Shown: positions 4,520 to 34,587, numbered from the stretch's first letter. The stretch: DNA of 34,587 nucleotides from Chiloscyllium plagiosum (GCF_004010195.1 NC_057718.1:2212361-2246947); one strand, 5' to 3'. Translations and numbers: made by a program. Notes: a model not told the origin generated them from the letters alone.

Positions 4520-4853
4520 TATTGACATCTAGACTCAAGACATTAGCTAACTCTCAATGGATGCTAGGAGAAAGGGAGGACTGCAGATGCTGGAGATCAG
4601 AGTTGAGAGTGTAGTGCTGGAAAAGCGCAGCAGGTCAGGCAGCATCTGAGCAGCAGGAGTATCGACATTTCAAGCATAAACTCTGATTCCTAATGAAGAG
4701 CTTATGCTCAAAACGTCGACTCTCCTGCTCCTCAGATGCTGCCTGACTGGCTGTGCTTTTCCAGCAACACACACTTTGACTCCATGGATGCTCCCTGACC
4801 TGCTGCGATTTCCAGCGTTTGTTGTTTTCAGTACAGATTACAGCTTCTGCAGT
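4520..4853 (+). mobile_element. Old PLE terminal-repeat (pLTR) copy split by a nested fold-back insertion
   Basis: catctagactcaagacattagct...atggatgct | ccctgacctgctgcgatttccagc...cagcttctgcagta resembles the pLTRs at 8277 and 19392. Confidence 0.55.
4566..4779. mobile_element. Fold-back PLE pLTR insertion (family A)
   Basis: Inverted arms around a degenerate hammerhead motif; flanked by CTCAATGGATGCT (4553-4565) and CTCCATGGATGCT (4780-4792). Confidence 0.8.
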
Positions 4854-7800: not shown

Positions 7801-7893
7801 AAACTCACATATACACAGTAACTGTAATGTATGAGTAATCTCAAAACATTCCTTTATAAAAATGCAAAAGAAACAAAACATTTGTAAAATACC

Positions 7894-8065
7894 TAGGAGA
7901 AAGTGAGGACTGCAGATGCTGGAGATCAGAGCTGGAAAATGTGTTGCTGGAAAAGCGTAGATCAGGCAGCATCCAAGGAGCAGGAAAATCGAAGTTTTGG
8001 GCATAAGCCCTTCTTCAGAAAAGGCTCTTTGGATGCTGCCTGACCTGCTGCGCTTTTCCAGCAAC
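7894..8065. mobile_element. Fold-back PLE pLTR insertion (family A)
   Basis: Perfect 16-bp direct repeat ACATTTGTAAAATACC at 7878-7893 and 8066-8081; inverted arms. Confidence 0.88.
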
Positions 8066-8276
8066 ACATTTGTAAAATACCGTTACATCGGCATGTTTTG
8101 AGTATTTAAAACACCATTGGTACAATACTGATACTCAAGTTGTTATATCTAACACCTGGACAGGTTTAATGTGGATTAAAGATTTAGACTGAAACTGAAA
8201 ATAACTTCTTCCTGGGGCTATCACACACCTGCTTGAATATGCTCAGCTGTGTGCTGAACTGCGGTGTTGAATTAAT

Positions 8277-11542: not shown

Positions 11543-11756
11543 GAGGAGAAAGTGAGGACTGCAGATGCTGGAGATCAGAGCTGAAAATGTGTTGCTGGAA
11601 AAGCGCAGCAGGTCAGGCAGCATCCAGGGAACAGGAGAATCGACGTTTCGGGCATAAGCCCTTCTTCAGGAAGAAGGGCTTATGCCCGAAACGTCAATTC
11701 TCCTGTTCCCTGGATGCTGCCTGACCTGCTGCGCTTTTCCAGCAACACATTTTCAG
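11543..11756. mobile_element. Young fold-back PLE pLTR insertion (family A)
   Basis: 90-bp arms 11578-11667 and 11670-11759 with one mismatch and a 2-nt loop; 15-bp TSD CTCCTCCTGACCATT at 11528-11542 and 11757-11771. Confidence 0.93.
11642..11669 (-). ncRNA. Minimal hammerhead ribozyme motif (PLE type)
   Basis: Minus strand reads CUGAAGA-A-GGGC-UUAU-GCCC-GAAA-CG-UC: core boxes, stem II, palindromic ACGU stem III, GUC cleavage triplet. Confidence 0.7.
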
Positions 11757-12014
11757 CTCCTCCTGACCATTCCACTGAACAGTGCAACACCATGAATTGT
11801 TGAAGAATTGGATTAACTTCAGAGAACTCCAGGTCATTGTGTTTGATTCCTGTTCTCAGTCACTCAGTGTGGACCCTGGGTTTCTTGGAATGTTGTCATC
11901 TTGTCTCATTCATTTCAATGACATGAAGATGTGAAGACCTTGTGTAACTTGTTTCCAAAACCCATAACCTTCGATGATTTTCTTTTTGAAGTCAACGTCA
12001 GATAGCAACTACTT

Positions 12015-12439: not shown

Positions 12440-13572
12440 TTTTTATTCAGTCATGGGATGTGAGTATGACTGGCTGGGCCATGGTTTTATTGTCCCTCTG
12501 TGGATGCCCTGGAGGTGGTGGTGATGAGCGGAGATAGAGTCAGAGACAGACAGCACAGAAGCAGACCCTTTGGTTCAACCCGTCCATGCCGACCAGATAT
12601 CGCAACCCAATCTAGTCTCACCTGCCAGTACCCAGCCCATGTGCCTCTAACCATTCCTATTCATTTACCCATCCAAATGCCTTTTAAATGCTATAATTCT
12701 AGCAGCCTCTACCACATCCTCTGGCAGCTCATTCCATACACGTATCACCCTCTGTGTAAAAACATTGCTCCTTAGGTCCCTTTTAAATTTTTCTCTTCTC
12801 ACCTTAAACCTATGTCCTCTAGTTCTGGACTCCCCTCATGATTTTGTAAACCTCTATAAGGTCACCCCTCAGCCTCCGACGCTCCAGGGAAAACAGCCCC
12901 AGCCTATTCAACCTCTCCCTATAGCTCAAATCCTCCAATCCTTGTAACTCTTTTCTGCACCCTTTCAAGTTTCACATCATTCTTCCGGGTGAAGGGGAAC
13001 CCGAAGCTGGTAGTGCTCCCATGTATCTGCTGCCTTTGTCCTTCTAAATGGAAGTGTTCATGGGTTTGGACAGCGCTAGCTGAAGATTTTTGGTGAATTT
13101 CTGCAGTGCATCTTGTAGATAGTACACACTGCTGCTACTGAGTGTCAGTGGTGGAGGGAGTGGATGTTTGTGGATGTGGTGCCAATCATGCGGGCTGCTT
13201 TGTCCTGGATGATGTCAAGCTTCTTGAGTGTTGTTGGAGCTGCCCCCATCCAGACAAGTGGGGATTATTCCATCACACCCCTGACTTGTGCCTTATAGAT
13301 GGTGGGCAGGCTTTGGGGAGTCACAAGGGGAGTTACTGCAGAATTGCTCGTCTCTGATCTGCTCTTGTCGCCAGTGTTTATGTGGGGTGTCCAGTTGAGT
13401 TTTGGGTCCATGTTGTTGATAGTGGGGGATTCAGTGATGGTAACATCATTGAACGTCAAGCGGCAGTGCTTAGATTGTCTCTAATTGGAGATGGTCATTG
13501 CCTGGCCTTTGTGTGGCATGAATGTTACTTTCCATGTATCAGTTCAAACCTGGATATTGTCCAGATCTTGCA
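12440..13572 (-). mobile_element. Second CR1/L2-group LINE family, 3' end (split by a CR1 at 12532-12985)
   Basis: ORF 13265-13459(-) LNWTPHIN...TPQSLPTIYKAQVRGVME; tail at 12440-12528 matches 29880-29945. Confidence 0.75.
12532..12985 (-). mobile_element. CR1 3' end with internal deletions
   Basis: Collinear with 19497-20005 (cctctggcagctcattccatacac, ggtcacccctcagcctccga). Confidence 0.85.
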
Positions 13573-16716: not shown

Positions 16717-16819
16717 CATCCTGGAGGCTTCCTGCCTCTATTCTTGAGAAACGTCGATTTTCCTGCTCCGCGGATGCTGCCTGACCTGCTGTGCTTTTCC
16801 AGCACCACTCTGATCTAAA
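16717..16819 (+). mobile_element. Short pLTR (family A) insertion inside the PLE RT
   Basis: 13-bp TSD CTCTTCCTACCTT at 16704-16716 and 16820-16832; contains gaaacgtcgattttcctgctcc...ttttccagcacc. Confidence 0.8.
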
Positions 16820-17044
16820 CTCTTCCTACCTTGACTCAGTCCTTTCACCCCGGTCCAGTCCCTGCCCACATACATCCAGGGTTCCTCTGATGCTTTACTC
16901 CAGCATCAGAATGTCCAGTTTGTGGGCTCTTATTCCCTCCTCTTTACAAAGCCTGTGCAATCCCTTTACACATCCATCCCCCAACCCCAGGATGGTCTCA
17001 GGACTCTCCACATCTCCCTGGAACAACAGCCGCAACCATCTCCG

Positions 17045-17970
17045 CCCAGCCAGGCCCATCCTCACCCTTAAACCTCCCCATCCCCATTACCCTCCTCCAC
17101 CCAGCTGGGCCCATCCTCACCCTGAAACCACCCCATCCCCCCCACCACCCTCCACCTGACCGGGCCCATCCTCACCCTGAAANNNNNNNNNNNNNNNNNN
17201 NNNNNNNNNNNNNNNNNNNNNNNNNNNNNNNNNNNNNNNNNNNNNNNNNNNNNNNNNNNNNNNNNNNNNNNNNNNNNNNNNNNNNNNNNNNNNNNNNNNN
17301 NNNNNNNNNNNNNNNNNNNNNNNNNNNNNNNNNNNNNNNNNNNNNNNNNNNNNNNNNNNNNNNNNNNNNNNNNNNNNNNNNNNNNNNNNNNNNNNNNNNN
17401 NNNNNNNNNNNNNNNNNNNNNNNNNNNNNNNNNNNNNNNNNNNNNNNNNNNNNNNNNNNNNNNNNNNNNNNNNNNNNNNNNNNNNNNNNNNNNNNNNNNN
17501 NNNNNNNNNNNNNNNNNNNNNNNNNNNNNNNNNNNNNNNNNNNNNNNNNNNNNNNNNNNNNNNNNNNNNNNNNNNNNNNNNNNNNNNNNNNNNNNNNNNN
17601 NNNNNNNNNNNNNNNNNNNNNNNNNNNNNNNNNNNNNNNNNNNNNNNNNNNNNNNNNNNNNNNNNNNNNNNNNNNNNNNNNNNNNNNNNNNNNNNNNNNN
17701 NNNNNNNNNNNNNNNNNNNNNNNNNNNNNNNNNNNNNNNNNNNNNNNNNNNNNNNNNNNNNNNNNNNNNNNNNNNNNNNNNNNNNNNNNNNNNNNNNNNN
17801 NNNNNNNNNNNNNNNNNNNNNNNNNNNNNNNNNNNNNNNNNNNTCCTCACCCTGAAACCTCCCCATCCTCTCACTCTCCTCCACCTGACTGGGCCCATCC
17901 TCACCCTGAAACCTTCCCATTCCACACCCCCCCCACTCTCCTCCACCCGGCCGGGCCCATCCTCACCTTT
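17045..17970. repeat. ~55-bp C-rich minisatellite spanning an assembly gap
   Basis: GGCCCATCCTCACC at 17053, 17108, 17163, 17892, 17954; N run 17183-17843. Confidence 0.85.
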
Positions 17971-19496: not shown

Positions 19497-20005
19497 AATA
19501 GAGTCATAGAGGTGTACAGCATGGAAACAGACCCTTTGATCCAACCCGTCCATGCCAACCAGATATCCCAACCCAATCTAGTCCCACCTGCCAGCACCCG
19601 GCCCATATCCCTCCAAACCCTTCCTATTCATATACCCATCCAAATTCCTCTTAAATGTTGCAATTGTACCAGCCTCCACCACTTCCTCTGGCAGCTCATT
19701 CCATACACACCACCCTGTGTGTGAAAAAGTTGCCCCTTAGGTCTCTTTTATAATGTTTCCTCTCTCACCCTAAACCCATGCCCGCTATTTCTGGACTCCC
19801 CCATCCCAGGGAAAAGACTTTGTCTATTTACCCTATCCATGCCCCTCATGATTTTATAAACCTCTAGAAGGTCACCCCTCAGCCTCCGATGCTCCAGGGA
19901 AAACCGCCCCAGCCCACACAACCACTCCCTGTAGCTCAAACCCTCCAACCCTGGCAACATCCTTGTAAACCTTTTCTGAACCTTTCAGGTTTCACAACAT
20001 CCTTC
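19497..20005 (-). mobile_element. CR1 3' end
   Basis: ORF 19748-19960(-) MLPGLEGLSYREWL...RRLRGDLLEVYKIMRGMDRV; CTATGACT tail. Confidence 0.9.
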
Positions 20006-20188
20006 TGTTTGATTAGCTTCTTTACATTTCCTGTGAAACTGAGCTCAGACTCTCTGTATAGATTAGTCTTAGATTCAAACGTTAGCCAAGTCATTGAGTC
20101 ACAGAGGCTAACAGCAAGGTATTCAAAAAGGCACAAGGTCTTCAGAAATGCCAACTCGCATTGAGAGGGTGATTCTGCCTGAATCTGC

Positions 20189-20550
20189 ACCAGTCCAGTG
20201 CTTCTATTCAACACCGGCCCCATCTAAACAACCCAGGACACAGACAGCACGGGGTTAGACACAGAGTAAAGCTTCCTCTACATTGTCCCTCATCAAACAC
20301 TCCCAGGACAGGGACAGCACACCAGTCCAGTGCTTCTATTCAACACCGGCCCCATCTAAACAACCCAGGACACAGACAGCACGGGGTTAGATACAGAGTA
20401 AAGCTTCTTCTACATTGTCCCTCATCAAACACTCCCAGGACAGGGACAGCATGGGGTTAGATACAGAGTAAATCTCCCTCTACACTGTCCCCATCAAACA
20501 CTCCCAGGACAGGGACAGCACGGGGTTAGATACAGAGTAAAGTTCCCTCT
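20189..20550. repeat. 69-70 bp tandem repeat with a 132-bp higher-order duplication
   Basis: GGGGTTAGAYACAGAGTAAA at 20251, 20383, 20453, 20522; ACCAGTCCAGTGCTTC at 20189 and 20321. Confidence 0.9.
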
Positions 20551-20583
20551 ATAAACCAAAAGTAACACTCCGTTTGTATATTT

Positions 20584-21599
20584 GTCAAAAAGTGTGGTGC
20601 TGGAAAAGCACAGCCGGTCAGGCAGCACCTGAGCAGGAGAGTCGACGTTTCAAGCGTAAGCTCTTCATCAGGAATGAGGGGAAGGGGAAGGGGGCTGAGA
20701 GATAGATGGGAGGGGGTGGGGCTAGGAGGAGGAAGGTAGCTGGGAATGCGATAGCTAGATGAAGCTGGGGGTGAAGGTGATAGGTTGGAGCGGATAGGTG
20801 GGAAGGAAGATGGACAGGTAAGACAGTTCAAGAGGATGGTGCCGGGTTGGGGGGTTGGATCTGGGATGAAGTGGGGGGAGGGGAGATGAGGAAACCAGTG
20901 AAGTCGATGTTGGCGCTGTGTGGTTGGAGGGTCCCAAGGCAGAAGATGAGGTGTTCTTCCTCCAGGTGTCAGGGTGGCTAGCATTTGGTGATGGAGGAAG
21001 CCCAGGACCTGCATGCCCTTGGTGGAGTGGGAGGGGGAGGTTGAAGTGTTTGGCCACAGGCCGGTGGGGTTGATTGGTGCGTGTGTCCCAGAGATGTTCC
21101 CTGAAATGTTCCGTGAGTTGGCATCCTGTCTCCCCAATGTAGAGGAGACCACATCAAGTGCAATGTACACAGTAGGTGAGGTGTTTGGATATACAGGAAA
21201 ATCTCTACCGGATGTGGAAGGATCCTTTGGAGCCTTGGATGGTGAGGTGAGGTGAGAGGGGTGGGTGAGGGTTGTGACAAGGTCTTGTTGTGACAAGGGA
21301 AAGTGCTGGGTGTGGAGGGTGGGTTTGTGGGGTTGTGGACCTCACAAGGGAGTCATAGCGGGAATGGTCTCTGTGGAACAATGGTAGGAGTAGCGTGGGA
21401 AATATACCACTGGTGATAGGATCTTAATGGCGGAGTGTGATGCAATGTATGCGGAGGTTGGTGGGGTGGAAGGTAGGACCAGGGGGGTTCTGTCCTTGCT
21501 GCAGTTGGAGGGGTGGGGCTCAACTGCAGAAGTGAGGGAAATGGAGGAGATGCACTGGAATCGCTGACCACATGGAAAGGGAAATTGCAGTCCTTGAAG
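20584..21599 (-). mobile_element. PLE 3' part (GIY-YIG plus pLTR), left arm of inverted pair
   Basis: Minus strand ~21200-21090 reads KHLTYCVHCT*CGLLYIGETGCQLTEHFREHL; pLTR at 20584-20675. Confidence 0.88.
20644..20671 (-). ncRNA. Minimal hammerhead ribozyme motif
   Basis: Minus strand reads CUGAUGA-A-GAGC-UUAC-GCUU-GAAA-CG-UC. Confidence 0.65.
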
Positions 21600-21600
21600 T

Positions 21601-22495
21601 TGGTCGATGATGCCCTCCAATGTATCTCCCCCACTTCCTGCACCTCTGTCCTTGCAGCCCACCCCTTCCAAAGCAACAAGGACCAGAAACCGCGCCCACC
21701 CACCCGGTCCTCACCTTCCACCCCACCAACCTCTGGATACATGGCATTGCCCTCCGCCATTCAGATGCTACATTTCCACAACCTACAATTAGACCCCACC
21801 ACCAGAGGTGTATTTCCCTCCCACCCCCATCAGTGTTCTGCAGAGACTATTCCCTCTGTGCCTCCCTCGTTAGATCCACACCACCCCCACCAATGCATCC
21901 TCTACAACTGGCACCTGCCCTTGCCACTCCAGGAGGTATAAACCCTGCACCCACACCTCCTCCCCTCAATTCCATCCAAAGCCCCAAAGGATCCTTCCAC
22001 ATCTGGCAGGGATTTTCCTGCACATCCAAACACCTCATCTACTGTGTCCATTGCTCTCGATGTGGATTTGACAGGATGCCAACTCACTGAACACTTCATG
22101 GAACATCTCTGGGACACACGCACTAAACAACCCCAAGGCCCTGTGGCTGACCACTTCAACCTCAGATCCAACCCTCCAACTCGGCACTGCCCTCTTGAAC
22201 TCTCCAACCTGTCCCATCTATCCGCTCCACCCCCCTCTCTGACCTGTCACCATCACCCCCCAGCTCCACCTACCTGTCATATTCCCAGCCTCCTTCTCCC
22301 CAGCCCCACGTCCACCCCTTCAACCCCCTCCCATTTATCTCTCAGCCCCCTTGGGCACCTCCCACATTTCTGATGAAGGGCTTATGCTCAAAACGTCAAC
22401 TCTCCTGCTCGTCAGATGCTGCCTGACCTGCTGTGCTTTTCCAGCAACACACTTTTTGACTCTGATCTCCAGCATCTGCAGTCCTCACTTTCTCC
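21601..22495 (+). mobile_element. PLE 3' part (GIY-YIG plus pLTR), right arm of inverted pair
   Basis: PVLTFHPTNL, GPK-like SPKGSFHIWQGFSCTSKHLIYCVHCSRCG, PVADHFN; pLTR 22370-22495 ending gcagtcctcactttctcc. Confidence 0.88.
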
Positions 22496-25102: not shown

Positions 25103-26313
25103 TTAAACACAGGTGAGGTGCCGGAGGACTGGAGGGTTGCTCATGTTGTATTCCGGGTAACTGCAGACCAGTGAGCCTGACGTCAGTGGTGGGAAAGTTG
25201 CTGGAGAAGGTACGGAGGGATAAAATTTATTTATATTTGGAAAAGAATGGGCTTATCAGTGATAGGCAACATGGTTTTGTGCAGGGGAGATTGTGCCTTA
25301 CCAACTTAATAGAGTTCTTTGAGGAAGTGATCAAGTTGATAGATGAAGGAAGNNNNNNNNNNNNNNNNNNNNNNNNNNNNNNNNNNNNNNNNNNNNNNNN
25401 NNNNNNNNNNNNNNNNNNNNNNNNNNNNNNNNNNNNNNNNNNNNNNNNNNNNNNNNNNNNNNNNNNNNNNNNNNNNNNNNNNNNNNNNNNNNNNNNNNNN
25501 NNNNNNNNNNNNNNNNNNNNNNNNNNNNNNNNNNNNNNNNNNNNNNNNNNNNNNNNNNNNNNNNNNNNNNNNNNNNNNNNNNNNNNNNNNNNNNNNNNNN
25601 NNNNNNNNNNNNNNNNNNNNNNNNNNNNNNNNNNNNNNNNNNNNNNNTGCACAGGTGGATAGAGTGGTCAAGAAGACATATGGTATGCTTACCTTCATCG
25701 GACGGTGTATTGAGTATAAGAGCTGGCAGGTCATTTAAATTTGTACATGACATTGGTTCGGCCACATTTAGAATACTGTGTACAGTTCTGGGCGCCACAT
25801 TACCAAAAGGATGTGGACGCTTTGGAGAGGGTGCAGAGAAGGTTTACGAGGATGTTGCTGGTATGGAAGGTGCTAGCTATGAAGAGAGGTTGAGTAGGTT
25901 AGGATTGTTTTCATTAGAAAAAGGGAGATTGAGGGGGGACCTGATTGAGGTCTTACAGAATCATGAAGGGTATAGACAGGGTGGATAGAGACAAGCTTTT
26001 TCCCAGGGTGAAGGATTCAATAACAAGAGGTCATGCGTTTAAGGTGAGAGGCAAAACGTTTAAGGGAGATATACGCGGAAAGTACTTCATTCAGAGGGTG
26101 GTAGGTGTCTGGAATGTGTTGCCAGCAGAGATAGTAGAGGCAGGCACGGTAGATTCGTTTAAGATGCATCTGGACGGATGCATGAGTAGGTGGGGAGCAG
26201 AGGGACACAGATGCTTAGGAATTGGGCGACAGGTTTAGACAGTAGATTTAGATCGGCTCAGGCTTGGAGGGCCGAAGGGACTGTTCCTGGGCTGCAAATT
26301 TTCTTTGTTCTTT
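25103..26313 (+). mobile_element. CR1 ORF2 RT region to 3' end (gap 25353-25647)
   Basis: [58 protein letters not shown]; tail ttctttgttcttt. Confidence 0.92.
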
Positions 26314-27460: not shown

Positions 27461-28256
27461 AGTGGCATTCGGAGTTTAATTTGGATAAATGCAAGCTGTT
27501 ACATTTGGTAAAACACACAACAGCAGGGTTATATAATTAAACATAAGGACCTGGTTAGTTTTAATACAGCAGAGAGACCTCAGGGATCAGGTACATCATT
27601 CTTTGAAGTTTGTATAACACAGACAGGACGGTTAAGGAGGTTATGAGCATGGTTGCCTTTGTAGCTCAGACCTTTGAGTATCGGAGTTGGGACGTCACGT
27701 TGAGGTTGTACAGGACATTGGTAAGGCCCCTTCTGGAGTACTGTGTGTCGTTCTGGTCTCCGTGATATACAAAAGGATATTATTAAGCTGGAGAGATCCA
27801 GCAAAGATTTACTGGGATGTTGCCGGGAATGAAGGGCTTGAGTTAGAAGGACAAGCTGGGTCATTTTTCACTGGAGCGTAGGAGGTTAAGGGGTGACCAT
27901 ATACAGGTTTATAAAGTCATGAGAAGTGAATGGCAGGATGTCTTTTCCCTAGGGTGAGGGATTTCAAGATTGGGGGTATATTTTTAAGGTGAGAGCAGCA
28001 TGATTTTAAAAAGACATGAGGTGCAACGTTTTTACACAGAGGGTGGTTTGTGTGTGGAGTGAACTGCCTGAGGAAGTGGTGGATGCAGGTACAGTTACAA
28101 CATTTAAAATACATTTGGATAGCTACCTGAATAGAAAAGGTTTGGAGGGATATGGGCAAGGAGCGGACAGGTGGGACTTGTCTAGTTTGGGGTTATGATC
28201 GGGAATGGACTGGTTGGACCGAAGGGTCTGTCTCCATGCTGTGTGACTGTATGATC
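27461..28256 (+). mobile_element. CR1 3' end
   Basis: EFNLDKC, LYRTLVRPLLEYCVSFWSP, FTQRVVCVWSELPEEVV; tail ctgtgtgactgtatga. Confidence 0.88.
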
Positions 28257-32577: not shown

Positions 32578-33075
32578 TAGAGTCATAGAGTCATAGAGAA
32601 AAAAGTCCATCCATGCTAACCCCATTTCCCTGTACTTGGTCCATATTCTTTTAATCCTTTCCTATCCTTGTATTTGTCCAAATGCTGTTAATGCACCTGC
32701 CTCAACCATTTCTACTGGCAGCTCATTCCATATGCGTACCACCCTCTGTGTAAAAGAGTTGCCCCTCAGGTTCCCTTTTATTCTTGAACCTTAAACTGAT
32801 GCTCTCTAGTCCTTGATTCCCCAACCTTGGGAAAAAGTCTGAATGCACTCACCCTATCCATGCCTCTCATCAAACAATACACTTCAATAAGATCCCCCCT
32901 CAGTCCCCTACACTCTAAAGATAAAAGTCCTAGCTTGTCCAATATAACTCAAACCCTTGAGTGCAGGTAACATCCTTGTAAATTTCTTCTGCACTCTTTC
33001 CAGTTTAATAACATCCTTCCTAAAACAAAACCAAACACAATACTCCAAGTGCGGCCTCACTACCTGTACAACTGC
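32578..33075 (-). mobile_element. CR1 3' end abutting the young element
   Basis: [31 protein letters not shown] in ORF 32908-33342(-); (CTATGACT)2 tail at 32581-32596. Confidence 0.88.
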
Positions 33076-33078
33076 ACC

Positions 33079-33630
33079 ATGGTGCAGAAGGCCATTCAAG
33101 AGGGGGGAGCTAATAGACAAGTAGTGGTTATAGGGGATTCTATAATTAGGGGGACAGATAGTATCCTTTGCAAGCCGGATCGGGAGTCTCGCATGGTGTG
33201 TTGCCTCCCCGGTGCCAGGGTGCGAGACATCTCCGACCGGCTTGAAAGGATATTGGAGCGGGAGGGGGAGGATCCAGTTGTTGTGGTCCACATTGGTACC
33301 AACAACATAGGCAAGACTAGGGTGGAGGACCTGTTTGGGCATTATGAAGCACTAGGCAAGAAATTGAAGCACAGGTCCTCAAGGGTCATAATCTCCGGAT
33401 TACTGCCCGAGCCACGTGCCAATTGGCATAGGGACAAGAAAATTAGGCAAGTAAACACGTGGCTAAGGGATTGGTGTGGGAAAGAGGGATTCCACTTCAT
33501 GGGGAATTGGCATCAGTTTTGGAACAGGGGGGATCTGTACCATTGGGACGGTCTCCACCTGAACCGATCAGGTACCAATATTCTAGCGAAGAGGATAAAT
33601 AGGATGGTCAGTAGGACTTTAAACTTCTGA
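33079..33630 (+). CDS. CR1 ORF1p C-terminal SGNH/GDSL esterase domain (N-terminus missing)
   Basis: Block I VVVIGDSIIRG, block II CLPGAR, block III VVVHIGTNNI, block V DGLHLN; ends RTLNF*. Confidence 0.9.
   Translation: MVQKAIQEGGANRQVVVIGDSIIRGTDSILCKPDRESRMVCCLPGARVRDISDRLERILEREGEDPVVVVHIGTNNIGKTRVEDLFGHYEALGKKLKHRSSRVIISGLLPEPRANWHRDKKIRQVNTWLRDWCGKEGFHFMGNWHQFWNRGDLYHWDGLHLNRSGTNILAKRINRMVSRTLNF
33618..33624 (+). promoter_or_regulatory. Candidate -1 ribosomal frameshift heptamer T_TTA_AAC
   Basis: In phase with ORF1 codons (ACT TTA AAC TTC TGA); -1 frame is closed by TAG at 33612-33614 and open from 33615 into ORF2. Confidence 0.5.
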
Positions 33631-33647
33631 GTGGGGGGGAAGGGAAA

Positions 33648-34583
33648 GTGAAAGCAACAGGGAGTATGGAGGTAAATGGCAAGATAAGCAGCAGGATAGA
33701 ATGTTTCCAGGCGGATTTAAAATTGAGGCAGACTGAGAATACAGTAAAAAGCAAGGATAACTTAGGACATATGACTTCCAACATCTCTAATGATAAGGAA
33801 GTTAGCATTAAGGCACTTTACCAGAATGCACGTAGCATACATAACAAAGCCGATGAACTAATGGCACAGATAATAGTGAATGATTATGATGTAGTAGGCA
33901 TCACAGAGACTTGGTTACAGGGGGGTCAGGACTGGCAGTTAAACCTCCATGGTTTTTCAACTTATCGAAAAGACAGAGAGGTGGGCAGAGGGGGTGGGGT
34001 TGCCTTGTTAGTTAAGAACAAAATTAAATCTATGGTATTGAATGACATAGCGTCGGATGATGTGGAGTCTGTGTGGGTGGAATTGAAGAACCACAAAGGC
34101 AAAAAAAACATAACTGGAGTTGTGTATAGACCTCCTAACAGTGGTCAGGACCAGGGACATAACATGTACCGGGAAATAGAGAAGGAATGTCAGAAAGGCA
34201 AGGTTACATTGATCATGGGAGACTTCAATATGCAGGTGGACTGGGTAAATAATGTTAGTGGATCTAAAGAAAGGGAATTCATGGAATGCTTACAGGATGG
34301 ATTTTTGGAACAGCTTGTCATGGAGCCCACAAGAGAGCAGGCTATTCTGGACCGAGTGCTTTGCAATGAACCAGACTCTATAAAAGATCTTAAAGTAAGG
34401 GAACCCTTAGGAAATAGCGACCATAATATGGTAGAGTTCAGGCTGGAGTTTGAAAGGGAGAAGGCAAAATCGGATGTAATGGTGTTAAGGTTGAATAAAG
34501 GTAATTATGAGGGCATGAGAGAGGAACTGACTAAAATAGACTGGAAGCAGAGGCTAACCGGGAAGACAGTAGAGCAAAAATAG
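33648..34583 (+). pseudogene. CR1 ORF2p apurinic/apyrimidinic-type endonuclease domain, with premature stop
   Basis: YQNARSIHNK, VGITETWL, GGGVALLV, GVVYRPP, IMGDFN, PTREQAILD, SDHNMV; TAG at 34581-34583 where Trp (TGG) would be expected. Confidence 0.9.
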
Positions 34584-34587
34584 CAGG

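Follow-up and report, generated by a model that had tools for sequence, protein, structure and literature searches.

A conserved candidate -1 frameshift site at the ORF1/ORF2 junction of esterase-type CR1 retrotransposons

We suggest that in CR1 LINEs with an esterase-type ORF1 the second open reading frame is reached by a conserved programmed -1 ribosomal frameshift at the ORF1/ORF2 junction, which would yield an esterase-EN-RT fusion; judging from the sequences, we give this reading a probability of about three in four. The junction feature is real and family-wide, and would work like a viral -1 frameshift site without the canonical 3' structure. The slippery site, its phase, a fixed -1 register and a pattern of conservation and covariation were observed directly. 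The junction was found near the end of the window, by which we mean the whole analysed stretch of 34,587 nucleotides of Chiloscyllium plagiosum DNA, where the following features are located:

32580-33075, minus strand: separate CR1 3' fragment with ORF2 C-terminus, 3' UTR and a TCTATGAC-type tail
33076-33630, plus strand: 3' part of CR1 ORF1 with the SGNH/GDSL esterase domain (Pfam PF13472), ending ...R-T-L-N-F-stop, TGA at 33628-33630
33612-33614, plus strand: TAG stop in the -1 (ORF2) frame
33615-34583, plus strand: ORF2 frame, -1 relative to ORF1, with a linker of ~65 aa followed by an APE endonuclease; TAG at 34584-34586
33618-33624, plus strand: U_UUA_AAC slippery heptamer in the ORF1 phase, proposed -1 shift site
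33633-33644, plus strand: G-rich tract, G7-AA-GGG here and T-G6-AA-GGG in most family reads, read as G/W-G-E-G in the ORF2 frame
33666-33668, plus strand: first in-frame ORF2 ATG, Met18 of the frame

ORF1 encodes an SGNH esterase (GDS ... DxxH; PF13472, E 1.3e-13) with G19-D20-S21 and D157-G158 conserved, and its profile matches the ZfL2-1 ORF1 esterase 4C1B at E 7.7e-40. It is 88% identical to P0001 and 79% identical to catshark P0003, its closest named homologues coming from sharks, rays, chimaera and coelacanth; P0003 agrees by eye with the translated start of the consensus ScyCan_CR1-19 (labelled CR1, PMC13343379), residue 2 excepted. Full-length homologues align only from 33076 (P0002 from 33070), and ORF1 of the window copy is 5'-truncated at about 33076; because of this truncation it lacks the N-terminal zinc finger and coiled coil which are present in the nearest homologues, P0001 and P0003. 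The endonuclease domain in the ORF2 frame (Pfam PF03372, E 1.6e-17) matches at about 33774-34424, and the frame is 68% identical to P0095, an intact ORF2 of 1002 aa bearing both EN and RT. The RT itself is outside the window, which ends at 34587, and placement in the CR1 clade therefore rests on ORF1 and EN. With its ORF1 truncated and its ORF2 frame stopped at 34584-34586, the locus is a dead copy of an esterase-type CR1 LINE.

The minus-strand fragment at 32580-33075 meets the element's truncated 5' end in head-to-head orientation and is outside the ORF1/ORF2 junction. Twin-priming inversion was ruled out as its origin, the piece being a 3' end with a tail. More CR1 3'-end fragments are present at 12686-12835, 19653-20005, 25900-26144 and 27773-28105. 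Other repeats in the window include a near-perfect palindrome of 182 bp at 11578-11759 (90-nt arms, 99%, 2-nt spacer), with related copies at 4566-4780, 7893-8071, 16748-16823, 20584-20680 and 22366-22495; an imperfect fold-back element of ~1.9 kb at 20584-22460, with nested inverted arms about 70-97% complementary and a centre near 21560-21615; and a tandem array at 20188-20551 with a period of 69 bp / 132 bp. Gaps in the self-alignment at about 17183-17843 and 25353-25647 correspond to the window's 956 N bases.

The elements which a sequence-only reading of this DNA had named at the junction could be reproduced in the window copy. ORF1 ends ACT TTA AAC TTC TGA with its stop at 33628-33630, TTTAAAC occupies 33618-33624 in the phase T_TTA_AAC, and the -1 frame, after TAG at 33612-33614, is open over 33615-34583 (322 aa, D-F-K-L-L-S-G-G-E-G-K-V-K...) and spans the endonuclease; GGG at 33642 and 33660 and the in-frame ATG at 33666 are likewise in place. 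Since TAG closes the ORF2 frame at 33612-33614, a shift into ORF2 could occur only at or after 33615. This is the only canonical heptamer in phase within the 183 ORF1 codons of the window copy, and local codon usage would bring its three codons together by chance in about 4% of cases. Taken as a single copy this is suggestive but weak evidence, and given the family evidence it is non-random.

That evidence comes in part from four runs mapped on 33400-33900 at a likeness of at least 80%, comprising 2671, 3932 and 2533 contigs from three organisms and 67 RNA reads (X24), with results drawn from 40 of 87 variant rows at a variant threshold of 4%. No substitution in 33605-33632 is found among these 40 rows in any of the four runs. 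The indels listed number four: one run has 1 nt deleted at 33526, and the other three, each of 3 nt, lie at 33767-33796. None is listed that alters the frame between 33527 and 33766 (4% threshold, four runs), so that no departure from the -1 register, which the sequence-only reading had allowed might vary within the family, is listed from the heptamer to EN. The 13 codons from heptamer to ATG carry two listed variants, too few to compare synonymous with non-synonymous change. The G7 run at 33633-33639, 8 nt past the heptamer, did not fare as well as the rest of the earlier description: it is present in this copy, but T stands at 33633 in 96-97% of the depth of the three DNA runs and in 8/8 RNA reads, the family tract is G6, and G7 is a private mutation of the window copy.

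The same junction is found in published CR1 consensus sequences by a motif-conditioned search of PMC13343379's Supplementary Table 2, covering the opening 400 nt of every sequence. TTTAAACT occurs there 44 times, 21 of these in CR1-labelled rows, and 18 of the latter stand, by eye, at the end of an ORF1 or the start of an ORF2. Conservation of TTTAAAC at vertebrate CR1 junctions is thus seen, within this motif-conditioned search, at 18 junctions from 11 species, which according to their abbreviations are alligator, crocodile, bearded dragon, bullfrog, coelacanth, bowfin, chimaera, stingray, sawfish, catshark and dogfish. The codon that follows is TAG in ten, TAA in six, TGA in one and TGT (no stop) in one, and GGG is present at most about 15 nt away in 17 of the 18 (by eye). 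Seven variant words, used as controls, were viewed at 40 of their 43 places, with 0 at the junction, the other three being TTAAATTAG. Two portions of the table that were read without a filter, 43 rows in all, have TTTAAAC in 4/4 rows that contain the whole site, and a fifth row starts inside it. Because bases are dropped in many consensus rows the register is dependable only in ScyCan_CR1-1a, which by eye can be read without a break of frame from F-K-L to the EN motif. AldAff_Crack-2, labelled Crack, resembles the end of an esterase ORF1 with TTTAAAC-TAG in its first 400 nt and is possibly mislabelled or chimeric, and two dogfish CR1 families, SquAca_CR1-3 and -18, carry TTTAAACTA in their 5' UTR as well. 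No junctions were found in the available portions of the supplements of PMC4120745 and PMC4316615. A metagenome scan for DNA of relatives returned one locus (L001), a 23-residue match with no junction, and genome contigs, viral contigs, plasmids and phages returned 0 loci.

The ORF1 pool of 232 proteins combined 94 homologues with 138 further representatives taken from the best 150 among 10,356 matches, and 167 of the 232 extend as far as the last helix. Their terminal tripeptide is compatible with X_XXY_YYZ in 115 of 167 cases, compared to 1616 of 44108 internal tripeptides (3.7%), and in 67 of 106 representatives at 50% identity. The endings are L-N in 105 and G-N in 10 of the 167. Residues that lack any T-ending codon (K/E/Q/M/W) stand before terminal LN in one protein of 105 and before terminal GN in 9 out of 10, the counts for representatives being 1/57 vs 9/10 (Fisher 2e-9, relatedness ignored); at offsets -4 and -5 from the LN end the same residues occur in 16/57 and 22/57. 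Before terminal G-N the residue is Q in nine proteins and S in one, and codons of both can end in G. R/T/S-K-N was seen in six ORF1 proteins, terminal in one and followed by 10-12 residues in five. We suggest that LN, GN and KN correspond to U_UUA_AAC, G_GGA_AAC and A_AAA_AAC, with the preceding residue changing as the heptamer would require; for the GN and KN groups both heptamer and -1 register are deduced from protein. In distant ORF1 groups the distance from the catalytic His to the terminal Asn ranges over +20 to +35 residues, and since it varies the terminal motif tracks the end of the ORF and not the fold.

An ORF1 tree of 46 selected rows, with terminal residues left out and 10 rows dropped by the motif filter, places the vertebrate L-N group in a single clade (100/98) and S-G-N and S-K-N in a sister pair (100/96); the labels of its six groups change at least 13 times. 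Independent heptamer switches number only a handful, and the Fisher value of 2e-9 ignores this kinship. P0197 ties one of the distant ORF1 groups to an EN-type ORF2, and P0272 and P0296 fall near eukaryotic GDSL-type clusters (Atlas). Termini incompatible with a heptamer were found in 52 of 167 homologues and 39 of 106 representatives; among them are some decayed copies or L2-type proteins, the five with xKN 10-12 residues before the stop, and ends of the kinds xFFR/H, RG, SG and EN, which match no canonical heptamer. DGxHP-type esterases (L2-like) have the LN end in 1/7. Three distant ORF1s ending in x-F-F-R/H (P0269, P0287 and P0347) resemble the UUU_CGN +1 motif named in PMC5052127, and a different recoding event may operate at their junction.

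On the ORF2 side, 120 homologues were listed (best of 794), and 15 of these models carry F-K-L at 69-101 aa ahead of the EN motif: 13 from wood stork, one from ibis and one from stingray, representing about three independent hosts. L-N in frame 0 combined with F-K in frame -1 forces TTTAAAY. In the stingray gene model P0097 the esterase runs straight into F-K-L, and P0038 from the same species ends in G-G-G-G-L-N; together they show the -1 register in a ray, with P0097 being a gene model. Three poison-frog ORF2 models read V-K-L, which implies a putative G_UUA_AAC that would break the XXX rule and be invisible to the protein test; we take this to be the site of equine arteritis virus. G-[ED]-G is kept in ORF2 models of shark, turtle and bird. 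Among 8000 candidates scored no natural single-ORF esterase-EN-RT family was found, a weak result, the 33 longer matches all being single-copy gene models. P0026 and P0103, a CR1 ORF1 and ORF2, are deposited as Pseudomonas aeruginosa and Carnobacterium maltaromaticum on contigs of 3-4 kb and are probably contaminating animal DNA.

The sequence of events that we propose is as follows. Most ribosomes would end ORF1 at the stop 0-1 codon past the heptamer and release ORF1p, while a minority would slip by -1 on U_UUA_AAC, with tRNA-Leu and tRNA-Asn re-pairing from UUA-AAC to UUU-AAA. The slipped ribosomes would read ...T-L-N-L-L-S-W/G-G-E-G..., a variable linker of 50-100 residues, and then EN and RT, giving a low-stoichiometry, Gag-Pol-like ORF1p-ORF2p fusion. 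Both the slippage and the role of the fusion as working ORF2p are what we infer from sequence.

What might stimulate such a shift is less apparent from folding. The RNA downstream of the heptamer folds no better than its shuffles (z +2.4 and +1.1; -0.1 with the site included; pseudoknots are outside the scope of the tool), and no 3' hairpin is predicted 5-9 nt downstream. The sequence-only reading had pointed to a G-quadruplex formed from G7 and the two GGG runs, an explanation that overlaps with simple frameshifting and that is consistent with the minimum-energy fold of the window copy (ViennaRNA), which includes a quadruplex, with the G-tract being conserved at 17/18 junctions, and with the stimulation of shifting by G-quadruplexes in synthetic constructs (PMC5009743). 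This stimulator finds no support in the family: the G7-based quadruplex needs G33633, which is lacking in 96-97% of family depth, it is lost in 3/3 windows that carry the majority letter and is specific to the window copy, and the family sequence does not have four G3 tracts, only two G-tracts being conserved. We regard it as quite unlikely, a two-tier or intermolecular quadruplex being possible. The two conserved G-tracts (G-[ED]-G) could instead be a hinge rich in Gly, a place where a protein binds, or a piece of some structure beyond what the tools can model, and the tract at 33633-33644 is possibly a spacer or stimulator, or such a hinge. At the same time, the stop is near-invariant directly after the Asn codon, and we read from this that slow termination would assist the slip; our candidate stimulator is the adjacent stop codon together with the conserved G-tract, possibly protein-bound.

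The serious rival is termination-reinitiation, in which ribosomes that had finished ORF1 would restart in the -1 frame at UAAUG, at a near-cognate codon or without AUG, with the heptamer aiding pausing or tethering. It would account for a stop that nearly always follows right after the Asn codon (105/167 ORF1s end in LN) and for the lack of predicted RNA structure, it has precedents in SART1 and L1 (PMC3894237, PMC5009743), and it agrees with UAAUG, with its AUG in the ORF2 frame, at 3/18 consensus junctions, GTG in place of that AUG in two more, and the M-G-G-E-G N-terminus of P0095, which is consistent with UAAUG. However, the overlapping AUG is missing from 15/18 junctions and from the window family, SART1-type UAAUG coupling being absent at the window junction; the codon after CTA varies between ATG, GTG, GTT and ATT within one shark-ray lineage, as an ordinary Met/Val/Ile position would, with the heptamer invariant; the five KN-type ORF1s carry their motif 10-12 codons ahead of the stop; and the switch among three X_XXY_YYZ heptamers is left unexplained. 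We therefore consider reinitiation on its own unlikely, and it may be that frameshifting and reinitiation coexist in some families. Two further explanations fit worse than either. L-N could be kept for protein reasons, as a helix end or C-terminal binding motif, with no recoding and with ORF2 translated by leaky scanning or internal initiation from a lineage-specific AUG such as 33666, which has no variant among 40 of 87 rows in the window family. An amphipathic helix in the predicted model ends with Leu181, which continues its i+4 hydrophobic face, so conservation of Leu181 may be partly structural, and the stork and turtle families each have a well-kept Met standing 13 or 24 aa ahead of the EN motif. 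Such Met offsets are lineage-specific (13, 24 and 1 aa in 24, 21 and 20 of 112 models), 17/112 models have no Met 6-110 aa ahead of the motif, many being gene models and maybe partial, the first Met of Xenopus models falls within the first EN strand, and P0095 has G-G-E-G-K-V upstream of the place of the window's Met18 with no Met there. Protein-level selection also sits poorly with a penultimate residue that swaps between L, G and K, a codon-level constraint on the residue before it, a varying distance from the catalytic His and 0 synonymous variants at the junction in the 40 places viewed, making this explanation very improbable. A change at the RNA level, by means of a splice acceptor (CTAG/G) or polymerase slippage giving an in-frame or ORF2-only transcript, would suit the TAG after the heptamer at 10/18 junctions, the many bird gene models that begin an exon nearby and the in-frame esterase and F-K-L of P0097; but AG is absent at 8/18 junctions and in the window family, no long homopolymer is found in TTTAAA, the bird models are predicted genes whose support is uncertain, and no splice joint across the junction is listed in the 67 RNA reads, a thin sample for expression or splicing. 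We give this explanation hardly any credence.

Programmed -1 frameshifting, by comparison, retains the core of what the sequence-only reading had claimed for it. Neither of the two signs at the sequence level that could have told against it, a wandering register and synonymous variation in the Leu-Asn codons, was seen in the rows and places viewed, and covariation across three heptamers has been added in its favour; the part that fell is the G-quadruplex. A broader version of the proposal would have the -1 frameshift ancestral and general for ORF2 in esterase-type CR1 of sharks, coelacanth, amphibians, reptiles, birds and more distant relatives, with an esterase-EN-RT fusion serving as the working RT and assembling along with ORF1p much as Gag-Pol does, the shift driven without a classical pseudoknot by the adjacent stop and the G-tract or a bound protein, and the heptamer swapped among U_UUA_AAC, G_GGA_AAC and A_AAA_AAC. 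We lean towards this broader version, if only slightly. Were it true, the actual CR1 product would differ from the 'ORF2p' annotated from the first Met, the RT would be linked to an esterase ORF1p that binds membranes and associates with itself, and CR1, whose group supplies the dominant retrotransposons of most vertebrates (PMC13343379), would give animal genomes a natural -1 frameshift of very wide occurrence that apparently does without a standard RNA structure. A full-text literature search found no proposal of frameshifting in CR1; older CR1 literature is outside its coverage, and an earlier passing proposal is possible. 'CR1' occurs 0 times in the first 300,000 of the 449,034 characters of the 2016 frameshifting review PMC5009743.

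Among known systems the nearest is canonical CR1 with an esterase (type IV) ORF1 (CR1 subgroup 7 of Metcalfe and Casane 2014, PMC4120745; Canonical-CR1 in PMC13343379), which like the window has an esterase ORF1 followed by an APE ORF2. The word 'frameshift' is absent from the main text of both papers, no mode of ORF2 translation was found there, and translation of LINE ORF2 has been called an open question (PMC3894237). ZfL2-1 of the L2 clade (PDB 4C1B, PMC3905857) has the same SGNH esterase ORF1 as CR1; its aligned stretch stops four profile positions short of the end, and the chain has two more residues, before the L-N position. For the APE-type non-LTR elements TRE5-A and TRE3-A of Dictyostelium a -1 frameshift is stated to be necessary for ORF2 (PMC5911963), and LINE frameshifting therefore has a precedent; these elements differ from CR1 in clade and host, with no esterase described and no slippery heptamer given in the portions of that source available. 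SART1, with its UAAUG stop-start, and mammalian L1, with AUG-independent reinitiation, share with CR1 a bicistronic LINE RNA and low ORF2 output, but they yield free ORF2p, whereas in CR1 it is the heptamer that is conserved and not the AUG. The closest likeness in mechanism would be to -1 frameshifting of the viral and retroviral type (U_UUA_AAC of IBV and coronaviruses, G_GGA_AAC and also A_AAA_AAC; PMC5009743). Unlike those sites, the CR1 junction belongs to a non-LTR retrotransposon, has no predicted pseudoknot or stem-loop 5-9 nt downstream, and usually has its 0-frame stop in the very next codon. The heptamers, their phase and the short overlap are the same, the three heptamers are among the four most shifty on mammalian ribosomes (Atkins et al., PMC5009743), and in both a structural ORF lies upstream and a polymerase downstream in the -1 frame.
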